A DNA stretch of 64,000 bases from an uncultured virus (IMG/VR IMGVR_UViG_3300032167_000098) (lineage: Duplodnaviria > Heunggongvirae > Uroviricota > Caudoviricetes). Below, piece by piece: positions 14,942 to 45,086 of the stretch. The translations under genes and the position numbers were made by a program. Below the pieces are notes generated by a model that had not been told where the DNA came from, did no database searches, and saw only the letters and a list, made by a program, of their open reading frames with translations. Numbering within the stretch: position 1 is the stretch's first letter; every line of letters starts with the position of its first letter. The stretch is from positions 1 through 64,000 of the IMG/VR virus record IMGVR_UViG_3300032167_000098; one strand, 5' to 3'.

Positions 14942-16414
14942 TCATATTACTCTATTGAGTGCTTTATCATACGACCAAGGCTGTATTTGTTCAAATGCAT
15001 GTGCAATAGCAAACACATCTTCATCTTGATACTGCTTTCCGATGATCTGCATCCCTACCGGAAGCCCATCGTTTGTCATACCTGCCGGAACAGATGCAGC
15101 TGGATATCCGACGAAGTTGACCAGGGGTGTTTCGGCAAATGCAATGAATCCTATATTTGGATCAATTGCAACTCCGTCTACTTCCTTTACACATCCGTTG
15201 TCTTCATTGCGAAGCGGCGGACATATTGATGTCGGAGAGACGATTGCGTAATATCCTTGATCAAATACATCTTCAAAGTTGTCAAGAATATCTGTCCGAA
15301 TCTCATTGAACGTGCGCATGCTGTGAATATCAGTATCATATGCGATTTTATTGAATTTTATAAACTCTTCTGGTAGCTCATCTCTGTGATCCTTAACCAG
15401 ATCGAGTCCTTGACCTCTCCATAACTCTAAGTCGAGAGCGGTATCAAGCGATATTGACCATGCCCAGCAATACATTATACTGTATGCGGGAAACTTGAAG
15501 TTGAAATTGACGAAGTCTACGTGTGCTCCAGCTTCTTCAAGTCGTTTAGCTGCATTGAATACTATTTCACGAACTTCACTATCCGTTGAGAAAAGATTGA
15601 AGTCATATGTAAATGCGATCTTCTTTCCCTTGATCGGCTTCTTCATCAACTCTAAGAAATCCTTATTGTTGTTGATCGGAAGACTGATCGGATCTCTCGG
15701 ATTGTATCTCGCCATTCCGTTGAGCATCTGCGCGCTATCTTCAACTGTTTTTGTAAGTGCACCATTGAAACAATATGGATGTGTAGCTGACCAACCATCT
15801 GGCCTACAGTAACTTGGAATAGTTCCCAGCGATGCTTTGAAGCCGAAAAGATTGCACCAGCCTGCGGGAATTCGTATAGATCCACCTGCATCTCCACCTT
15901 CCCCAAGAAGAATGAGACCGTCTGCAACAGCTGCTGCGGTACCGCCAGAAGATCCACCTGACGTTCTTCCGGTATCAAATGGATTCTTAGTAGCACCATA
16001 CATCTTGTTGATGCAAGCTCCACTGAATCCAAATGCCGGCGCATTTGTTTTTCCTACCGCTATAGCACCAAATTCTTTTGCAGCGGTGTAAAACATAGAA
16101 TCTGCATCGTCAACTGCAACGAGTGATTTTACGCCGCCGTGAGAATTTGTCCACCCCTTCTTAGATGGTAAGAAATCTTTAAGGGCAACAGGAACTCCAG
16201 CAAAAGGTCCACAGTATTCTCCTGACTGAATACGCTTTTCCAGCTGACGTGCTTCCTCCATTGCATCCTCAATCTTTGTGTAGGTAAATGCATTGATTGA
16301 CGGATTTCTAGCTTGTATGCGTTCTGCAAAGTAGTTGATTACTTCCGTAGGTGAAACTTGTTTAGTGTTAACAAGCTCACCTAACTGTACTCCGGATAAT
16401 CTTTCCAGCTCCAT
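14942..16414 (-). CDS. Amidase-signature family enzyme
   Basis: GVPVALKD (Lys), GKTN, GGSSGG, GDAGGSIRIPA and GLPVGMQIIG; the Ser-cisSer-Lys triad is intact. Confidence 0.92.
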   Translation of the reverse strand: MELERLSGVQLGELVNTKQVSPTEVINYFAERIQARNPSINAFTYTKIEDAMEEARQLEKRIQSGEYCGPFAGVPVALKDFLPSKKGWTNSHGGVKSLVAVDDADSMFYTAAKEFGAIAVGKTNAPAFGFSGACINKMYGATKNPFDTGRTSGGSSGGTAAAVADGLILLGEGGDAGGSIRIPAGWCNLFGFKASLGTIPSYCRPDGWSATHPYCFNGALTKTVEDSAQMLNGMARYNPRDPISLPINNNKDFLELMKKPIKGKKIAFTYDFNLFSTDSEVREIVFNAAKRLEEAGAHVDFVNFNFKFPAYSIMYCWAWSISLDTALDLELWRGQGLDLVKDHRDELPEEFIKFNKIAYDTDIHSMRTFNEIRTDILDNFEDVFDQGYYAIVSPTSICPPLRNEDNGCVKEVDGVAIDPNIGFIAFAETPLVNFVGYPAASVPAGMTNDGLPVGMQIIGKQYQDEDVFAIAHAFEQIQPWSYDKALNRVI

Positions 16415-16417
16415 AGA

Positions 16418-17155
16418 TTACACCTTCACATTGTATTTGTTGAGATATTCCGCACCGACATCTTCTTTCTTCCACTTCCTCGCTATCTTGTAGCCTAAAG
16501 GGGAGAAGATGGCTTCTATAGCGAGTTCCAAAAGCATCATCAAGAATGAACATACAAACACCTGCTGAATTGTCCATCCAAAGAAGATGAATGATACAAA
16601 CAATGCAAATATGAAGTTATCTACAAACTGACCGGCAGCTGTTGAAATGAAACTTCTTACAGCAAATCCGCCGAAAGTATCTTTCTTGTCAACAAGTTTA
16701 CCTATCCCTTTGTTGACAAGAGAATTAACTAGACCTCCAAGGAACATCGCCGCCGCTGAACCGACAACTACATACCATGTTGATGCAAACGTGGAATCCA
16801 GCGCAGCGTTGATAGCAGCACTGATTTCAGGGGTTGCTCCGGCATAACTAGATGCCCAGATTCCGGGAATAGAAACAATTGCAGCATATAGAAGTGCAGT
16901 AAGCAAACTTATTATTGTTGCAATTGTGTTGAGTATGGTTGCAGCTTTTGGTCCAAAGCGTTTGCAAACTGCATCCATACACAGAAATGATATCCATGAA
17001 ACAAATATGCCTGCAGTCGATGCTAACCACGGAAGGTTGAAAATCGACTTGTTGGCCAGTAAATTCATGGATATCACGGATAGAATGAATACTGCTGTTA
17101 CGATACCTGGTATCGCTCTCATAGTGTCTTTGACTTGTGTTAACAATTTCTTCAT
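16418..17155 (-). CDS. YhhQ/VUT-family (queuosine-precursor transporter-like) membrane protein
   Basis: NLLANK, SFLCMD....FG...A and RSFISTAAGQFVDNFIF motifs; ~6 TM segments; GGAGG RBS. Confidence 0.8.
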   Translation of the reverse strand: MKKLLTQVKDTMRAIPGIVTAVFILSVISMNLLANKSIFNLPWLASTAGIFVSWISFLCMDAVCKRFGPKAATILNTIATIISLLTALLYAAIVSIPGIWASSYAGATPEISAAINAALDSTFASTWYVVVGSAAAMFLGGLVNSLVNKGIGKLVDKKDTFGGFAVRSFISTAAGQFVDNFIFALFVSFIFFGWTIQQVFVCSFLMMLLELAIEAIFSPLGYKIARKWKKEDVGAEYLNKYNVKV

Positions 17156-17162
17156 GTTAACT

Positions 17163-17217
17163 ACCTCCATTATTTTTATTTTAAGACGGGCTGTCAGGAT
17201 GTTACAAAACCGTCTTA
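17163..17217 (-). promoter_or_regulatory. Candidate preQ1-I-like riboswitch
   Basis: UAAGACGG-20-nt loop ending in C-CCGUCUUA, then AAAUAAAAAUAAU-GGAGG. The loop's ACAUCC can pair with the SD, and the element is directly upstream of the YhhQ-like gene. Confidence 0.4.
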
Positions 17218-17236
17218 TTTGCATTCTTCGTATTGA

Positions 17237-40563: not shown

Positions 40564-40640
<77 letters not shown>

Positions 40641-40756
40641 ATGAATTTGAAAGTTCAGTCCGCCTTTCAGCCATTCCAGTAAGGGCGATACACAGCTTAC
40701 AAGTCTCTGGCATCTGATACCTACGAGAGGTAACCATAACACGCGTTGTTATGTAT

Positions 40757-40875
40757 TATAGGCTGTTCTACACACATTTAACTACTTCTGTCCAGTTCGT
40801 CTACTAACCCAAGCGTCCTATCCAGCAACGCTCCCGATATTCGGACGGGCGTTCATCCGCATCGTAGCACCTACG
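40757..40875 (-). ncRNA. Unknown ncRNA family, copy C
   Basis: AGG-UGCUACGAUGC...CAGAAGU..UUAAAUG...GAACAG-CCU, homologous to the copies at 42948 and 44900. Confidence 0.65.
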
Positions 40876-40893
40876 TATTATATAACGATTCTA

Positions 40894-41274
40894 TTATTTA
40901 ACTATGTCCTTGCTCAACAGATGAAAACATAAGAATTCGTAATTTTTAATCAAATGTGTATTTGTCGACTCATCATACTCTATATAACCAGTACCGTAAG
41001 GTGTTAAATAATAATCAGACATCATAATATCTGCGATTGATTGCAAACTAGGTGATAGGACTGTCTCTGCAGACTTATTGTCATCGTTAAGATCCGTAAC
41101 AAACCCTAACCACTCACCTTCTCTACTGAATATATGTGTAGGATGCTCTTCAGATATCTGAGAAGCTAGAGATTTATAGAAATCTTTCGGATATGTCCAA
41201 CCTGATCTACGTTCGGTTTCAGTTGAGTTTAATGGCATCAATTGAAACGTGCATTTTACTTTCTCAGTACTCAT
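40894..41274 (-). CDS. Hypothetical protein
   Basis: 126-aa ORF with a GAGG RBS. Confidence 0.6.
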   Translation of the reverse strand: MSTEKVKCTFQLMPLNSTETERRSGWTYPKDFYKSLASQISEEHPTHIFSREGEWLGFVTDLNDDNKSAETVLSPSLQSIADIMMSDYYLTPYGTGYIEYDESTNTHLIKNYEFLCFHLLSKDIVK

Positions 41275-41284
41275 GTTGTACCTC

Positions 41285-41647
41285 TTACTTATCTAAATGA
41301 CACTTATAATGTTCACTGTGATCATATATGAGTGTTGGATCATCCCTTAAGCCGAATTCTGTTTTAATTCGAGGAATAAAGTTCTCAGAAATGTTCGGGT
41401 TCATATAGATAACAGCTCTGCCCTTGTTGTCGATATCAACACGGCCTCTTGGATAGTATTTGAAATTGTGTTTGCAGCCTTTCGGCTTGACGTAGGGCCA
41501 CAGTCTTTCGTGATTGTATGTGTTGCCGGACTTTGCGATTCCCTCGGTGTAATCATCTTCTACAAACGGGAACGCTAACAGCTCGTCATCTACTATCCAG
41601 AACACGCCGCGTCTCGTTTCTTTTGCAGCTGTTATCAATCTTTTCAT
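41285..41647 (-). CDS. Hypothetical protein with leader MKRLITAA
   Basis: 120 aa; contains GVFW, H..LW, YYPRGRV and D.S.HY.C. Confidence 0.7.
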   Translation of the reverse strand: MKRLITAAKETRRGVFWIVDDELLAFPFVEDDYTEGIAKSGNTYNHERLWPYVKPKGCKHNFKYYPRGRVDIDNKGRAVIYMNPNISENFIPRIKTEFGLRDDPTLIYDHSEHYKCHLDK

Positions 41648-42097
41648 AAGTTACGTCTTTCTCAATTTAAACACAATCAAATCATCTCAAGGCTACCACT
41701 CCGCATCTACTCGCAAGCTCTAAATAAGATACTCACTTGCTCCTAGCTCGAAAGCTTTTCCTACCTCCTCGAAGTTGGGCTGATATTTCGCCTACAGACC
41801 AGTTCTCTTAAGAGTTTACAACCGTGTCTCCCTTCGGTGAGCTCTTTCTTTCTCATCAATTCGGACTCTCGATCTCTGACCTTCGCTTACTATATAAACC
41901 TCGAGATGATTAACCACGGAACTTTTCACGCCTGCTCCTGCATCGTAGGTAGCATCCGTTTCAATTCTATAAACCCCAGCGTAGGGTGGCAATATATTTT
42001 GACATGCCGTACTCGTGCTACGCACATACCAGTGAATTTACGGTATATATCATTTCAACCGAAGGCTTCACCCTGCTAACTTAATGGGACTAATCCC

Positions 42098-42171
42098 TGG
42101 AGCAGATACGGAGAATCGAACTCCGACGATGAGATTGGAAATCTCAGGTTCTACCATTAAACTACATCTGC
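42098..42171 (-). tRNA. tRNA-Gly(UCC)
   Basis: Cloverleaf; UGAGA-UUUCCAA-UCUCA; U73 and CCA encoded. Confidence 0.9.
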
Positions 42172-42311
42172 ATATTGAATCTGAAGAAAGAATATAAGTT
42201 ATTCCTAATCAACACAACGACTATTAAAACGCACGTGCTCACGATGTATTATATAGGTTTCTCAAAGCCACTCTGCAGAGTGATATTTTTCGTCTCTCAA
42301 TCTTCAGATTT

Positions 42312-42439
42312 TGGTGCACTCTACAAGATTCGAACTTGTCTAAACTGTCTGTAGCTTCTTCTACATATCAGCTCTTAGTTTCAGGCATCAAGAAGTATTG
42401 CCTTAGACCTTAGTGTTCTTCCAAATGAACTAAGAGTGC
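42312..42439 (-). ncRNA. 128-nt tRNA-like RNA with an expanded anticodon domain
   Basis: Acceptor GCACUCU/AGAGUGC, D-arm GUUC/GAAC, T-arm ACAAG-UUCGAAU-CUUGU and ACCA end, with ~75 nt between the D and T arms. Confidence 0.75.
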
Positions 42440-42701
42440 AGAATTGAGCCTCAGGGCGTCCCCATGTTGGCTCAGTGACAGTTGTGGTGTTCAGTCACTT
42501 CGAGTCAGTAGACTGTCAACTACTTAGCACAACTTTTAAGGATGAAGTTTGTGCCTTATCATAACCGCCCGTGTCGTAGGTCGCCCGCCACCTTTTTTGA
42601 ACATGAGGCATGGAAGCTTCCTCAGCTAACAATGAGAGTCTAACTCATGTCTTCACCCCGAAGGGTCGCACTCCACGTTGTGCTATGTTAGCATATTAAG
42701 T

Positions 42702-42841
42702 TGATGCAGGTAAGGATTTCCACCTTACATGAGCAAGTCTAAGTACACGATTTGACATTTTGTGGAATTACACCTCTACGGGTACCGCAATCTTACTATC
42801 TCTACTCTTGTTCAAGCGTCTACGTATTCCGCCACTGCATC
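42702..42841 (-). ncRNA. 140-nt tRNA-Leu-like RNA with an expanded anticodon domain
   Basis: Acceptor GAUGCAG/CUGCAUC, Leu-type D-arm GGCGGAAUACGUAGACGC, T-arm GUAAGG-UGGAAAU-CCUUAC, and an insert closed by UGAACAAG/CUUGCUCA. Confidence 0.7.
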
Positions 42842-42947
42842 TGAGAGCCTAGACCTATATCACTCTCCGGTCCTCTGCAAGCTCTTTGAGGACTTTATCC
42901 GTTTCTGCGCGCATCCGACGAATACACTCGGACATTTCTAAATTGAA

Positions 42948-43068
42948 TTGTAGGCTGTTCATCAAACTCCATTTAACATGTACTGCTGCTCTATCCGATT
43001 TACGCTCAGGAACCTCCTGCATCTCGTCAAATACCGCTTACGATTCGGAAGCTTCGTAGCACCTACAA
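42948..43068 (-). ncRNA. Unknown ncRNA family, copy B
   Basis: UUGUAGG-UGCUACGAAGC...GCAGCAGU...UUAAAUGGAGUUUGAUGAACAG-CCUACAA. Confidence 0.7.
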
Positions 43069-43232
43069 CTCTTGTTGTTTCTTCCCTGTGTCGTAGAGAA
43101 CACACGCCTTTCACTGTAGTAGAAAAAGTAATTACTGCACGCTCGATTCTACCGTACTGACATAACGACCAAAAATGTTATGGAAATTTATTGGATCTCA
43201 GTAACTTGGAACGTCATTACCGAGAAGCGGTC

Positions 43233-43307
43233 TGGCTGAGGTAGCTGGATTTGAACCAGCGATGCAGGAGTCAAAGTCCTGTGTCTTGACCACTTGACTA
43301 TACCCCA
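43233..43307 (-). tRNA. tRNA-Gln(UUG)
   Basis: Cloverleaf with U1-A72; CAGGA-CUUUGAC-UCCUG; CCA encoded. Confidence 0.9.
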
Positions 43308-43326
43308 ATATTTTGCAAGATTATAA

Positions 43327-43502
43327 TGGTTGTGAAGGTTGGACTTGAACCAACTTAATAACGTGCCTACATGTTATCGGCGTTGTGATTTCAATCACTT
43401 CAAGAAGCAGTTTCTTACCTTACTCGAGATATTCTCAGTCTTACTTCTAACGTTGTCAGCGGAACATGCACCCGCCCGACTCGACCCTTCGCCTTCTTCA
43501 CT
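43327..43502 (-). ncRNA. 176-nt RNA with tRNA acceptor/T-arm/CCA and a ~140-nt non-tRNA body
   Basis: GUGAAG/CUUCAC acceptor, GUUGG-UUCAAGU-CCAAC T-arm and ACCA end; body closed by GGCG/CGCC. Confidence 0.65.
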
Positions 43503-43517
43503 ATATCTTTTTAAACT

Positions 43518-43586
43518 AGGATTGTGTGAGAGTCGAACTCACTCCTGCAGTTTCTGAGGCTGCTGTGCGCCGTACACCATCGCTCC
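43518..43586 (-). pseudogene. Degenerate tRNA (CAG anticodon, mispaired acceptor stem)
   Basis: Intact T-arm GUGAG-UUCGACU-CUCAC, short D-arm, loop CUCAGAA, three acceptor-stem mismatches and no CCA. Confidence 0.5.
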
Positions 43587-43656
43587 ATATAGATTGTACT
43601 TTCTTACTTACGTAGAAGAAACTTTTAAGAAGACGGATACATACTAAAAGCTTAAT

Positions 43657-44808
43657 ATGGAGTTGGCAGTCTTTCCCACTGACTGCCTGAGACTCTATCT
43701 CTCATCACAGTCCTCTGTCACATTACTGTGCTCTTCGGCTTTTACCTCCACTAACGGAGGCGAGAGTCTCCCTGACATCCTTAGTACTTGCACAATCTGG
43801 CTTCACTTAATAGGAACATCGCTACGTTTCAGGTATAAGTACCAACAGCTTCGCCTCCCTCCGCAGGGACTTCCTCTGGACTCAGACCAGACTTTCCACC
43901 ATTGAATACATACGATGCTATTCCATGTCGCATCCTATTTAAGTATATCGGAGTTTCACCGACACCTTACGAGAATCCGAACCCACCAATTCTCTGAGTA
44001 CTACTGGCTCGCTTTAGTAATGCGATGCCTGACTGTTCCGAAGTTCGTCCGCAACTGTCTGAGTTTAACGGGCTATTTCTCCTTACTGAATCCTGAGACT
44101 CGGATTGATTACCGAGGAGAGATTCAACGGCTCTTTTTGTGCCGAAGTCTCTATTAACCTTCGGCTAAATTCCTCTCTTCGAAAATCTCTGCGCAGATAA
44201 GAGGAATACTTTAGGATGTAGTGGCAACCTCACTTTACTATAATCCACTACGTTACTCGAAGTACCTCTCCGAATTTTTCGGCTTTCGCTAATCCAGTCT
44301 TACAACCTCGTACCTATTTACGGAGATACGCTGACCGAAGGTTTTAGTTAGAATAAGTGTAGCACCAACCTCATTTGTGAAACTTGCTACCTACGGAGAT
44401 ACTTTTGCGCATTTCACGCATCCATCACCGTTCTTAGATCACTATCGTGTCTAAAGGTTGTTGATCTTAACTGGTACCTGAACCCACGAGTACCTTGGCG
44501 TTGTTGCACGCGTGTCCATCATTCAAGATATAACGGGCGACGTCCTTCCCGATCACGTATCATCGCTTTGATCAGAAGCGACTTCGAGATCAGCACCACT
44601 ATTCATCTGAGGTAGATTTAATTCATCAACCACTTATCTGACTCTACGACCTTGTACTTCGGTGGTCATGCACCTTCAGATCTCACTTTATTTCGAGCCT
44701 GTGAGCAGGACTTGGTGTGGAGAGCCTTTCTGTAGATACTTTCATGTGACTTTTTCACCTTTAGAGCGTACTCGCGAATACGACATCTTCAAGCTTCTCT
44801 AACTCCAC
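43657..44808 (-). ncRNA. Candidate giant (~1.15 kb) structured non-coding RNA
   Basis: No - strand ORF in the track. The ends pair (GUGGAGUU/AACUCCAU), there are many nested long-range helices, and it starts right after the tRNA-Leu CCA. Confidence 0.65.
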
Positions 44809-44892
44809 TGGTGCACCTGGAGAGACTTGAACTCTCACCCATCTTGGACTGGACCCTAAAACCAGCGCGTCTGCCATTTCCGCCACAGATGC
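44809..44892 (-). tRNA. tRNA-Leu(UAG)
   Basis: Class II cloverleaf with a long variable arm; loop UUUAGGG; A73 and CCA encoded. Confidence 0.88.
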
Positions 44893-44899
44893 ATGTATT

Positions 44900-45008
44900 A
44901 TATCAGGCTGTTCATCCCACTCCATTTACCACTGCTGCTGCGTCCATTTACTCCGTTCCAGAAAGCTATTAAGGCGATCTGCGGTATAGGCTTCGTGGCA
45001 CCTGATAT
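44900..45008 (-). ncRNA. Unknown ncRNA family, copy A
   Basis: AUAUCAGG-UGCCACGAAGC...GCAGCAGUGGUAAAUGGAGUGGGAUGAACAG-CCUGAUAU. Confidence 0.7.
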
Positions 45009-45018
45009 ATTTGATTTT

Positions 45019-45086
45019 TACAAGTATATTATAAGCCCTACTGATTATGTCAGTATTATATATTTATTAAATTTTTATAAATTTTA
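45019..45086 (-). promoter_or_regulatory. 68-bp class E promoter element, copy 2 (heads the RNA array)
   Basis: Near-identical to 14828-14895. Confidence 0.75.

Follow-up and report, generated by a model that had tools for sequence, protein, structure and literature searches.

A family of small structured RNAs carried in the tRNA islands of uncultured gut and rumen phages

The window, a 64-kb stretch of DNA formed by positions 1 to 64,000 of the uncultured virus record IMGVR_UViG_3300032167_000098 (IMG/VR), carries three diverged copies of an RNA motif, and the search for relatives confirmed a family of small structured-RNA genes carried by many uncultured gut and rumen phages in islands of tRNA and non-coding RNA genes. 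The family itself is new to Rfam 15. Its kind is already known, namely the orphan stable RNAs of phage tRNA clusters (T4 rnaC/D, ROOL, GOLLD and manA). The defining context, which a model's earlier note on this DNA (the original prediction) had missed, is that the motif is a unit of the phage tRNA and non-coding RNA island and is read from the tRNA strand. With regard to function, the best reading, to which we give about an even chance, is that of a small RNA processed together with the tRNAs and acting in trans, with its exposed bulge as the docking site for a conserved partner.

The three copies were found on the minus strand at the positions originally predicted, with the closing stems described for them. 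Copy A (44900-45008) is the canonical member, with an outer helix P1 formed by AUAUCAGG and CCUGAUAU, an inner helix P2 formed by UGCCAC and GUGGUA, and a conserved 19-nt bulge, AAUGGAGUGGGAUGAACAG, on the 3' strand between P2 and P1 (44908-44926, minus strand). Copy B (42948-43068) has the P1 UUGUAGG/CCUACAA and a P2 whose 3' strand contains 4 inserted nucleotides, and copy C (40757-40875) is a divergent member with a 5-bp P1, GUAGG/CCUAU, and a bulge that lacks three nucleotides, GGA. All three share the closing stem, the 5' block GGUGCYACGAWGC and the 3' block CAGMAGUA..GUUAAAUG..GAACAGCCU. A covariance model, R1, built from 37 homologues on contigs other than that of the window, recovered them with scores of 89.1 bits (E 1e-21), 68.6 bits and 38.9 bits (E 2.5e-8) for A, B and C, its matches spanning 44898-45010, 42945-43071 and 40753-40879; with the filters off, no further match above 15.7 bits was present in the 64 kb. 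Likewise, exact matches to the 13-mer GGTGCYACGAWGC are confined in the window to 40859, 43051 and 44990, and those to the 9-mer GAACAGCCT to 40760, 42952 and 44905, all on the minus strand, so that each has three exact sites and they co-occur at the three copies alone. The window copies are old paralogues and not recent duplicates, since their pairwise identity (64-70%) does not exceed that with copies in other phages (70-76%). A second GUAAAUGGA lies at 44941-44950 (minus strand), in the variable middle of copy A, and partly repeats the beginning of the conserved bulge block.

The family was collected by scans of IMG/VR and of species genomes. A first pattern, which joined two blocks, returned 60 IMG/VR loci; 45 were kept because the remainder of the 3' block, not imposed by this pattern, was present in them as well, and the other 15 were dropped as coding-like chance matches. 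The 45 loci gave 37 unique sequences and the alignment A3, which is not fitted to a model and from which R1 was built. The second scan was anchored on the 3' block alone, leaving the 5' side free, and yielded 112 IMG/VR loci with an exact 3' block (80 of them among the matches listed). A separate scan of species genomes yielded 23 loci. R1 aligned 117 matches, 93 of them distinct, in a second alignment, A5, which is fitted to the model and so leans towards the structure. All 23 species-genome loci are contigs of metagenome-assembled genomes from goat, sheep, rabbit, mouse, human or rumen samples, and they were taken as misbinned phage contigs because their taxonomy is inconsistent, ranging from Methanobrevibacter to Bacteroidales. 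The island was found in sequencing runs of faecal, bovine and sheep gut metagenomes. No isolate phage with the motif was found: a blastn search of 50,697 GenBank phage records, with a whole member and with the 3' block as queries, gave only chance matches in coding regions (E >= 3), and megablast of the island returned a single unrelated tRNA-like match of 86 nt. The record that holds the window is an IMG/VR phage of 73,195 nt, estimated to be 49% complete, with a near-identical twin of 144 kb that is 96% complete; a search for syntenic relatives via its SbcC-like protein found the twin alone. Only 4 of 50 motif-bearing records have relatives of the UvrD-type helicase of the window, and the RNA therefore spans phage lineages with little else in common.

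The pairing statistics of both alignments bear out covarying stems around an invariant core. In A3, P1 (8 bp) and P2 (6 bp) are paired in 92.0% of the alignment cells, compared with 74.7 +/- 1.4% after shuffling, a value reached by none of 500 shuffles; the covariation score is 0.439 against 0.136 for shuffled sequences, and slid registers pair in at most 51.8%. The larger A5 gives the same picture, with 92.3% of cells paired against 71.9 +/- 0.9% (again 0 of 500 shuffles) and at most 50.5% in slid registers. Changes on both sides of a pair were observed in 11 of the 14 pairs of A5. The middle pair of P2 is U-A in 53 sequences, C-G in 29, A-U in four and G-C in one, and even the 'invariant' G-C pair that adjoins the bulge has turned into A-U in 11 sequences. 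Furthermore, a G-U pair in P2 is conserved in 86 of the 93 sequences; it would be an A-C mismatch on the opposite strand, and the RNA is therefore read from the strand of the tRNAs.

From 5' to 3', the layout consists of the first strand of P1, a U that pairs with an A, the first strand of P2, a variable domain, the 3' strand of P2, the 19-nt bulge and the 3' strand of P1. P1 has 5-8 bp and is variable in sequence except for its inner GG/CC, while P2 follows the pattern GNNNC/GNNNU; the 5' strand runs continuously from P1 into P2, and P1 is stacked on P2. The bulge, AAUGGAGUNNGAUGAACAG, is purine-rich and near-invariant. Its block is invariant or at least 90% conserved in A3, though it was not imposed by the first pattern, and the same holds for the block AAAUGGAGU..GAU, which is at least 90% conserved without having been part of that pattern. 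In total, around 25 highly conserved junction nucleotides lie between the covarying helices, with variable peripheral stems. The conserved 5' block UGCYACGAWGC noticed originally is present, but its UGCYAC is no loop, as it forms the P2 strand whose partner is GYRGUA in the 3' block. Most members also keep two further blocks, GAAGC following P2 and RAGCW preceding the 3' strand of this helix. Short members such as the 75-nt L098 lack them, and the minimal conserved unit is therefore helix-bulge-helix. The length from P1 to P1 has a median of 115.5 nt (quartiles 104-133, range 44-207), where the shortest values are partial matches to the model.

The variable domain, of about 25-170 nt, caps P2 and often contains a hairpin with a loop of the UUGAA type. 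The word UU[GA]A[AGU] occurs in 42 of 66 middles against 24.7 +/- 3.5 after shuffling, and a T-loop-like UU[GA]A hairpin loop in 32 of the 66 against 12.7 +/- 3.2, being absent from the others. The original suggestion that a variable middle on a fixed scaffold could be a guide was not upheld, as the middles of close relatives differ by compensatory stem changes and by indels, in the manner of a structural domain; one middle hairpin reads CGUU/AACG in L013, CGGU/ACCG in L037 and CACU/AGUG in L039. With regard to guide targets, the longest matches of the window-copy middles in the window itself (11-12 nt) equal the shuffled expectation. Words complementary to the second half of the bulge are scarce in the middles: 5-mers complementary to GAUGAAC(A) occur 1, 1, 1 and 0 times in 114 middles where 3.6-6.2 were expected, a depletion that we read as selection for an unpaired bulge.

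The motif is embedded in tRNA arrays. In the window, all three copies reside in an island at about 40.5-45.0 kb that is poor in open reading frames (ORFs), consists of tRNA and non-coding RNA genes and provides around 4 kb of untranslated RNA, and all the tRNAs of the window are on the strand of the copies (six called by ARAGORN and a seventh, weak Rfam tRNA). In the flanks (250-1500 nt) of 118 unique copies, ARAGORN called 173 tRNAs, all of them on the strand of the motif, counting a tRNA beside several copies once for each copy; 57 copies had at least one tRNA. tRNAs are present in 16 of 20 loci with 1.5-kb flanks. In 11 of 36 cases the gap between the nearest upstream tRNA and P1 is at most 11 nt (-2, -1, 2, 3, 5, 6, 7, 7, 7, 8 and 11 nt), and in the remaining 25 it is 68-1319 nt, so this spacing is not fixed; downstream, 19 of 49 nearest tRNAs start no more than 12 nt away. 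What follows the motif is a tRNA, a further copy or intron sequence, not an ORF.

Other orphan RNAs share these islands. In one locus (L082), a ROOL RNA (855-1422, 354 bits) is found 70 nt from the motif and a GOLLD match (2104-2621; 138.8 bits, cut-off 150) about 470 nt away on the other side. In the genome G001, two copies belong to an array that also contains seven tRNAs and a GOLLD (L089, 3131-3646; 155 bits), while five more stand in tandem with no tRNA, directly after a TATAAT (L088). Matches to YrlA, DUF3800-XI and tmRNA (transfer-messenger RNA) were found near the motif in other loci. Copy numbers in five genomes of 146-233 kb were 7, 2, 2, 1 and 2. Two tRNA-like sequences with a T arm, one of them of about 130 nt with a GCCA end, follow the five-copy array of L088 (3080-3290) and are not called by ARAGORN.

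The motif can also be carried inside another RNA. In locus L008, ARAGORN calls, at 8-591, a tRNA-Leu(UAA) interrupted at position 34/35 by an intron of 499 nt, in which Rfam places a group I intron (32-398; 46.1 bits, below the cut-off of 50, E 2e-10) with a 114-nt insertion in the P6 loop. This insertion is a copy of the motif (142-277), and the 3' part of the intron contains another (393-507); the motif is thus a hairpin module that folds independently and can be built into a different RNA. The motif itself does not resemble the core of group I introns (RF00028, P3-P9) and is only an insert. Group I introns are present in 18 of the 50 motif-bearing records, with a single overlap (G005) among copies of known place and one other intron about 230 nt off. 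Modularity is also apparent on a DNA contig related to the window, where a joint from 42171 to 42948 connects the start of a tRNA-Gly with the 3' end of copy B, a break exactly at module borders; a second joint, from 40891 to 41672, removes exactly the two small ORFs of the island.

The motif had originally been described as unrecognised, with no likeness to hammerhead, twister, pistol, hepatitis delta virus (HDV) or theta ribozymes or to a common riboswitch, and Rfam 15 agrees. Its 4227 models, which cover ribozymes (twister-sister and hatchet included), riboswitches, 6S RNA, signal recognition particle RNA and tmRNA, gave no match on the three copies by gathering score or at E <= 5. In two sets of 20 homologous loci, scanned at E <= 10 and at E <= 0.1, respectively, the sole family match to overlap the motif was the group I intron that encloses it. 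Full-text literature searches with the conserved strings and on phage tRNAs and structured RNAs, ROOL and GOLLD, manA and DUF2828 found no description of it. The conserved strings are likewise absent from the six supplementary files of PMC10690425 covered by that search, which left files 1, 2 and 4 outside; the family may be among the 8,495 unnamed IMG/VR candidate RNAs that the consulted part of this source reports.

Several known RNAs occupy a comparable niche. The T4 RNAs rnaC and rnaD are processed together with tRNAs. Like the motif, they (species 1 and species 2; AF158101, 70908-71171) are small, tRNA-sized, on the tRNA strand and abut tRNA genes, but they are not homologous to it: R1 has no match at E <= 1 in the T4 region (L063), and rnaC ends in a tRNA-like T arm whereas the motif does not. 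ROOL (RF03087), GOLLD (RF02032) and manA (RF01745) are, like the motif, orphan, highly conserved, structured RNAs of the same niche. None of the three matches it in sequence or structure, and ROOL and GOLLD measure 400-800 nt, compared with about 115 nt for the motif. Theta ribozymes, which are HDV-like, cut beside gut-phage tRNAs, suppressor tRNAs included, and are widespread in metagenomes, according to the part of PMC10879173 available to us. They share with the motif the gut-phage and tRNA-adjacent setting, suppressor tRNAs among it. The motif, however, has neither an HDV-type nested pseudoknot layout nor an Rfam match to the HDV family, and its 5' end is not placed directly at the tRNA 3' end but at variable spacing. 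The bacterial Y RNA YrlA (RF02553) also combines a conserved terminal stem with a variable module near tRNAs and RNA-repair genes; YrlA-like matches lie beside the motif in five loci but never on it, and a Ro60-like gene is present in 11 of the 50 records. Lastly, a riboswitch would be expected in the 5' leader of a regulated gene, whereas the motif is not placed in one and has no expression platform. Phage tRNA islands are coming to be seen as stores of abundant orphan RNAs, with ROOL, GOLLD, manA and T4 rnaC/D among them.

With regard to neighbouring genes, the surroundings of the motif are those of RNA repair and counter-defence, as observed in motif-bearing genomes with no motif-free control set. 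Pfam searches around the copies in five genomes identified Thg1 in two, HAD_SAK_2 in two, cREC in one and DUF2828/DUF7788 with a vWA signal in three, as well as NT5C, Metallophos and, in two, a Tad8 ending right before an array; genes of RNA repair or conflict (Thg1, HAD_SAK_2, cREC, DUF2828/DUF7788, Tad8) lie within a few kb of the motif in all five. DUF7788 is present in 11 of the 50 motif-bearing records, always 1.5-14 kb from a copy by coordinate arithmetic, and absent from the other 39, the twin of the window included. Homologues of Tad8, the type II Thoeris inhibitor, were found in 3 of the 50 records, all of one lineage, in addition to one weak match. They stand immediately upstream of the motif array (L088, 1726-1998, E 2e-21; L202, 5761-6042, E 3e-22), with NT5C downstream, and this order of Tad8, array and NT5C is repeated in G001, G002 and G031, where Tad8 ends at most about 350 nt upstream of the array.

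The original prediction had also placed promoters (45019 and 40881) before two of the copies. Matches to a sigma-70-like consensus were found for both, on the minus strand: CTGACA-16-TAATAT upstream of copy A (45026-45053) and TTGAGC-18-TAGAAT just upstream of copy C (40888-40917). The scan as a whole, on the other hand, was not enriched over shuffles, with 12 sites against 9.7 +/- 3.1 expected. A promoter next to copy A or copy C is plausible on sequence grounds; such adjacency is not general, because many homologues lie 1-12 nt from a flanking tRNA. Among 113 copies, TATAAT-like hexamers end 1-12 nt before the motif in 29 cases, compared with about 2-10 per 6-nt bin farther upstream, and the AT-rich outer part of P1 itself yields such words. 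The word TATAATACAT occurs exactly at 40751, 42244 and 44893 (minus strand), all in the island on the tRNA strand, with a one-mismatch site at 40873; one site each overlaps copy A and copy C at the 3' end, and another is upstream of a tRNA-Gly. It may be an island-specific -10 or start element.

In the favoured reading, the RNA would be co-transcribed with the tRNAs and released by ordinary tRNA end-processing, with RNase P cutting at the 5' end of the next tRNA and RNase Z or exonucleases acting at the 3' end of the previous one. P1 would then shield the ends of the RNA, and the single-stranded bulge would act in trans as a docking surface for a host or phage protein, or for another RNA. The RNA could thereby serve as a decoy, sponge or adaptor in an RNA-centred conflict between phage and host, in which extra copies would raise the dose. 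Certain observations weigh against this proposal. No candidate partner protein is universal, since DUF7788 and Tad8 are each restricted to a minority of the records, and tRNA processing cannot be the sole release route because the five tandem copies of L088 have no tRNAs. Single-sequence folding energies of the three window copies are not better than those of shuffles (z 0.18, -0.66 and 0.01), so that the support for the fold is covariation and not stability. Bovine metatranscriptome contigs cover 41780-41969 and 44358-44701, together with 34 nt of the conserved block of a foreign copy; they are no proof that the three copies are transcribed, as what they cover is other parts of the island and a foreign copy. 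Additionally, the conserved junction core suits a ribozyme or an aptamer equally well.

Among the other readings, a small chance is given to a counter-defence device, a highly expressed multi-copy decoy or sponge delivered from the tRNA operon, or even from a tRNA intron. Its invariant, exposed bulge would sequester a conserved factor of the host that acts in immunity or targets RNA, or the nucleotide signal of that factor. The conserved junction nucleotides between covarying helices, the variable peripheral stems and the direct abutment of copies on tRNAs and on one another would also befit a new class of self-cleaving ribozymes that cut phage tRNA and non-coding RNA polycistrons into units, and suppressor tRNAs lie nearby, as for theta ribozymes in the consulted part of PMC10879173. 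We consider this unlikely, given that no Rfam ribozyme matches 20 loci even at E up to 10, that the distance to the upstream tRNA varies from -2 to 11 nt in the close cases and that no known ribozyme adjoins the motif in the 40 loci scanned. Comparably unlikely is a cis-acting element of the island transcript, either for processive antitermination (put- or EAR-like, against Rho or terminators) or as an insulator of stability or folding at the 5' end. The -10-like hexamers before copies A, C and the first copy of L088, the excess of TATAAT-like hexamers 1-12 nt before the motif and the length of untranslated island RNA are in its favour, but many copies come within 11 nt of a preceding tRNA or after another copy, and neither five tandem copies nor two intronic ones would be expected of an element needed once per transcript; moreover, the AT-rich outer P1 by itself yields TATAAT-like words and the promoter scan is at chance.

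A sponge-type small-molecule aptamer (its ligand could be an immune signalling nucleotide), as opposed to a riboswitch, has a slim chance. Its aptamer-like conserved junction, its multiple and presumably highly expressed copies and the closeness of Tad8 to the array in three related genomes would agree with it, whereas the Tad8 adjacency is limited to one lineage and neither an expression platform nor a regulated ORF follows the motif. The chance is just as slim for a self-assembling architectural RNA forming homo-oligomers. In the parts of the reports available to us, ROOL and GOLLD, often encoded near tRNA islands, form cages (10.1101/2024.12.08.627333) and RNAs of less than 200 nt such as manA form 60-mers (10.64898/2026.07.01.735769). 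These serve as precedents. The motif shares its neighbourhoods with ROOL and GOLLD, and the intron that carries two copies at its periphery could be clamped by them. However, the motif has no homology to ROOL, GOLLD or manA and lacks a conserved self-complementary loop, its sole palindrome, CAGCUG, being lost in the half of the family where W is A. Very unlikely is a Y-RNA-like partner of a phage Ro60-like (DUF2828/DUF7788, vWA) protein in a module of RNA repair or decay. The plan of the motif does recall that of Y RNAs, with a conserved terminal stem with a bulge and a variable domain that often carries a T-loop-like hairpin; DUF2828 is presumably TROVE-like, all 11 records with DUF7788 have it within 14 kb of a copy, and Thg1, HAD_SAK_2 and cREC are nearby. 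Against this, DUF7788 is missing from most records, among them the 96%-complete twin, the YrlA matches are always beside the motif, and the DUF2828/DUF7788 protein has no sequence match to solved Ro60 structures. The least credible alternative, with next to no chance, is that there is no RNA at all but a repeated DNA signal (a promoter or recombination site) or a chance repeat. The overlap of TATAATACAT with the 3' ends of copies A and C could be read in that way, but covariation contradicts it, with compensatory changes and strand-specific G-U pairs; family members in 112 IMG/VR loci and model E-values down to 1e-21 also speak against it.

The family offers a good experimental handle, as it is compact (75 nt in the minimal member), shows extreme conservation of the 19-nt bulge, is present in more than 100 gut-phage contigs and rides in a tRNA intron. 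A defined, mutable bulge on a short RNA suited to pull-down would allow a direct test of the decoy, ribozyme and building-block readings.

Some other functions were tried and rejected. The 3' block shows complementarity of 8+7 nt to the A loop (helix 92) of E. coli 23S rRNA, GGCUGUUC-G-CCAUUUA. An antisense action on this helix was rejected, as the best duplex (-20.1 kcal/mol, and -19.7 at the A loop) was equalled by 92 of 200 shuffled blocks; furthermore, the second block in Clostridia, CC[C/G/A]AUUAAAG, does not fit (six of 31 Clostridia-class genomes with an assembled 23S gene). Sense mimicry of rRNA gave matches at chance, and complements of the bulge occur at chance frequency in the phage's own transcripts. 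A pseudoknot between bulge and middle was discarded, the complementary words being depleted and not enriched. Compared by eye, the motif does not fit a K-turn, a sarcin-ricin motif, a tetraloop-receptor, or a C/D-box or H/ACA RNA.

With regard to the remaining features of the window island, three tRNAs on the minus strand neighbour the copies: a tRNA-Leu(UAG) (44809-44892) starts 7 nt past the end of copy A, a tRNA-Gln(UUG) (43233-43307) lies 164 nt upstream of copy B and a tRNA-Asn(GUU) (40565-40640) about 116 nt downstream of copy C. A tRNA with a CUA anticodon, an amber suppressor labelled tRNA-Pyl, was found at 42312-42439 (minus strand) when introns were allowed in ARAGORN, with a 36-nt insertion at position 38; it is called neither by standard ARAGORN nor by Rfam. 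The phage of the window may read TAG as sense in part of its genome. A tRNA-like RNA of about 170 nt, called by no tool, was recognised by eye at 43331-43500 (minus strand), with a T arm, an acceptor 3' strand with a CCA end (GGUUCAAGUCCAACCUUCACAACCA) and the matching 5' strand far upstream. The island further includes long ORF-free stretches with no Rfam match (43590-44808 and 41650-42097), in which the related DNA contig presents many substitutions and block indels, a pattern as in structured RNAs. The two small ORFs within it, of 126 and 120 amino acids (40894-41647, minus strand), have no Pfam or PHROG family. Elsewhere in the window, also on the minus strand, Pfam names a QueD-like PTPS (180-662), an amidase (14942-16414) and Vut_1, a YhhQ-type transporter (16418-17224), a set that we take to be suggestive of 7-deazaguanine metabolism.

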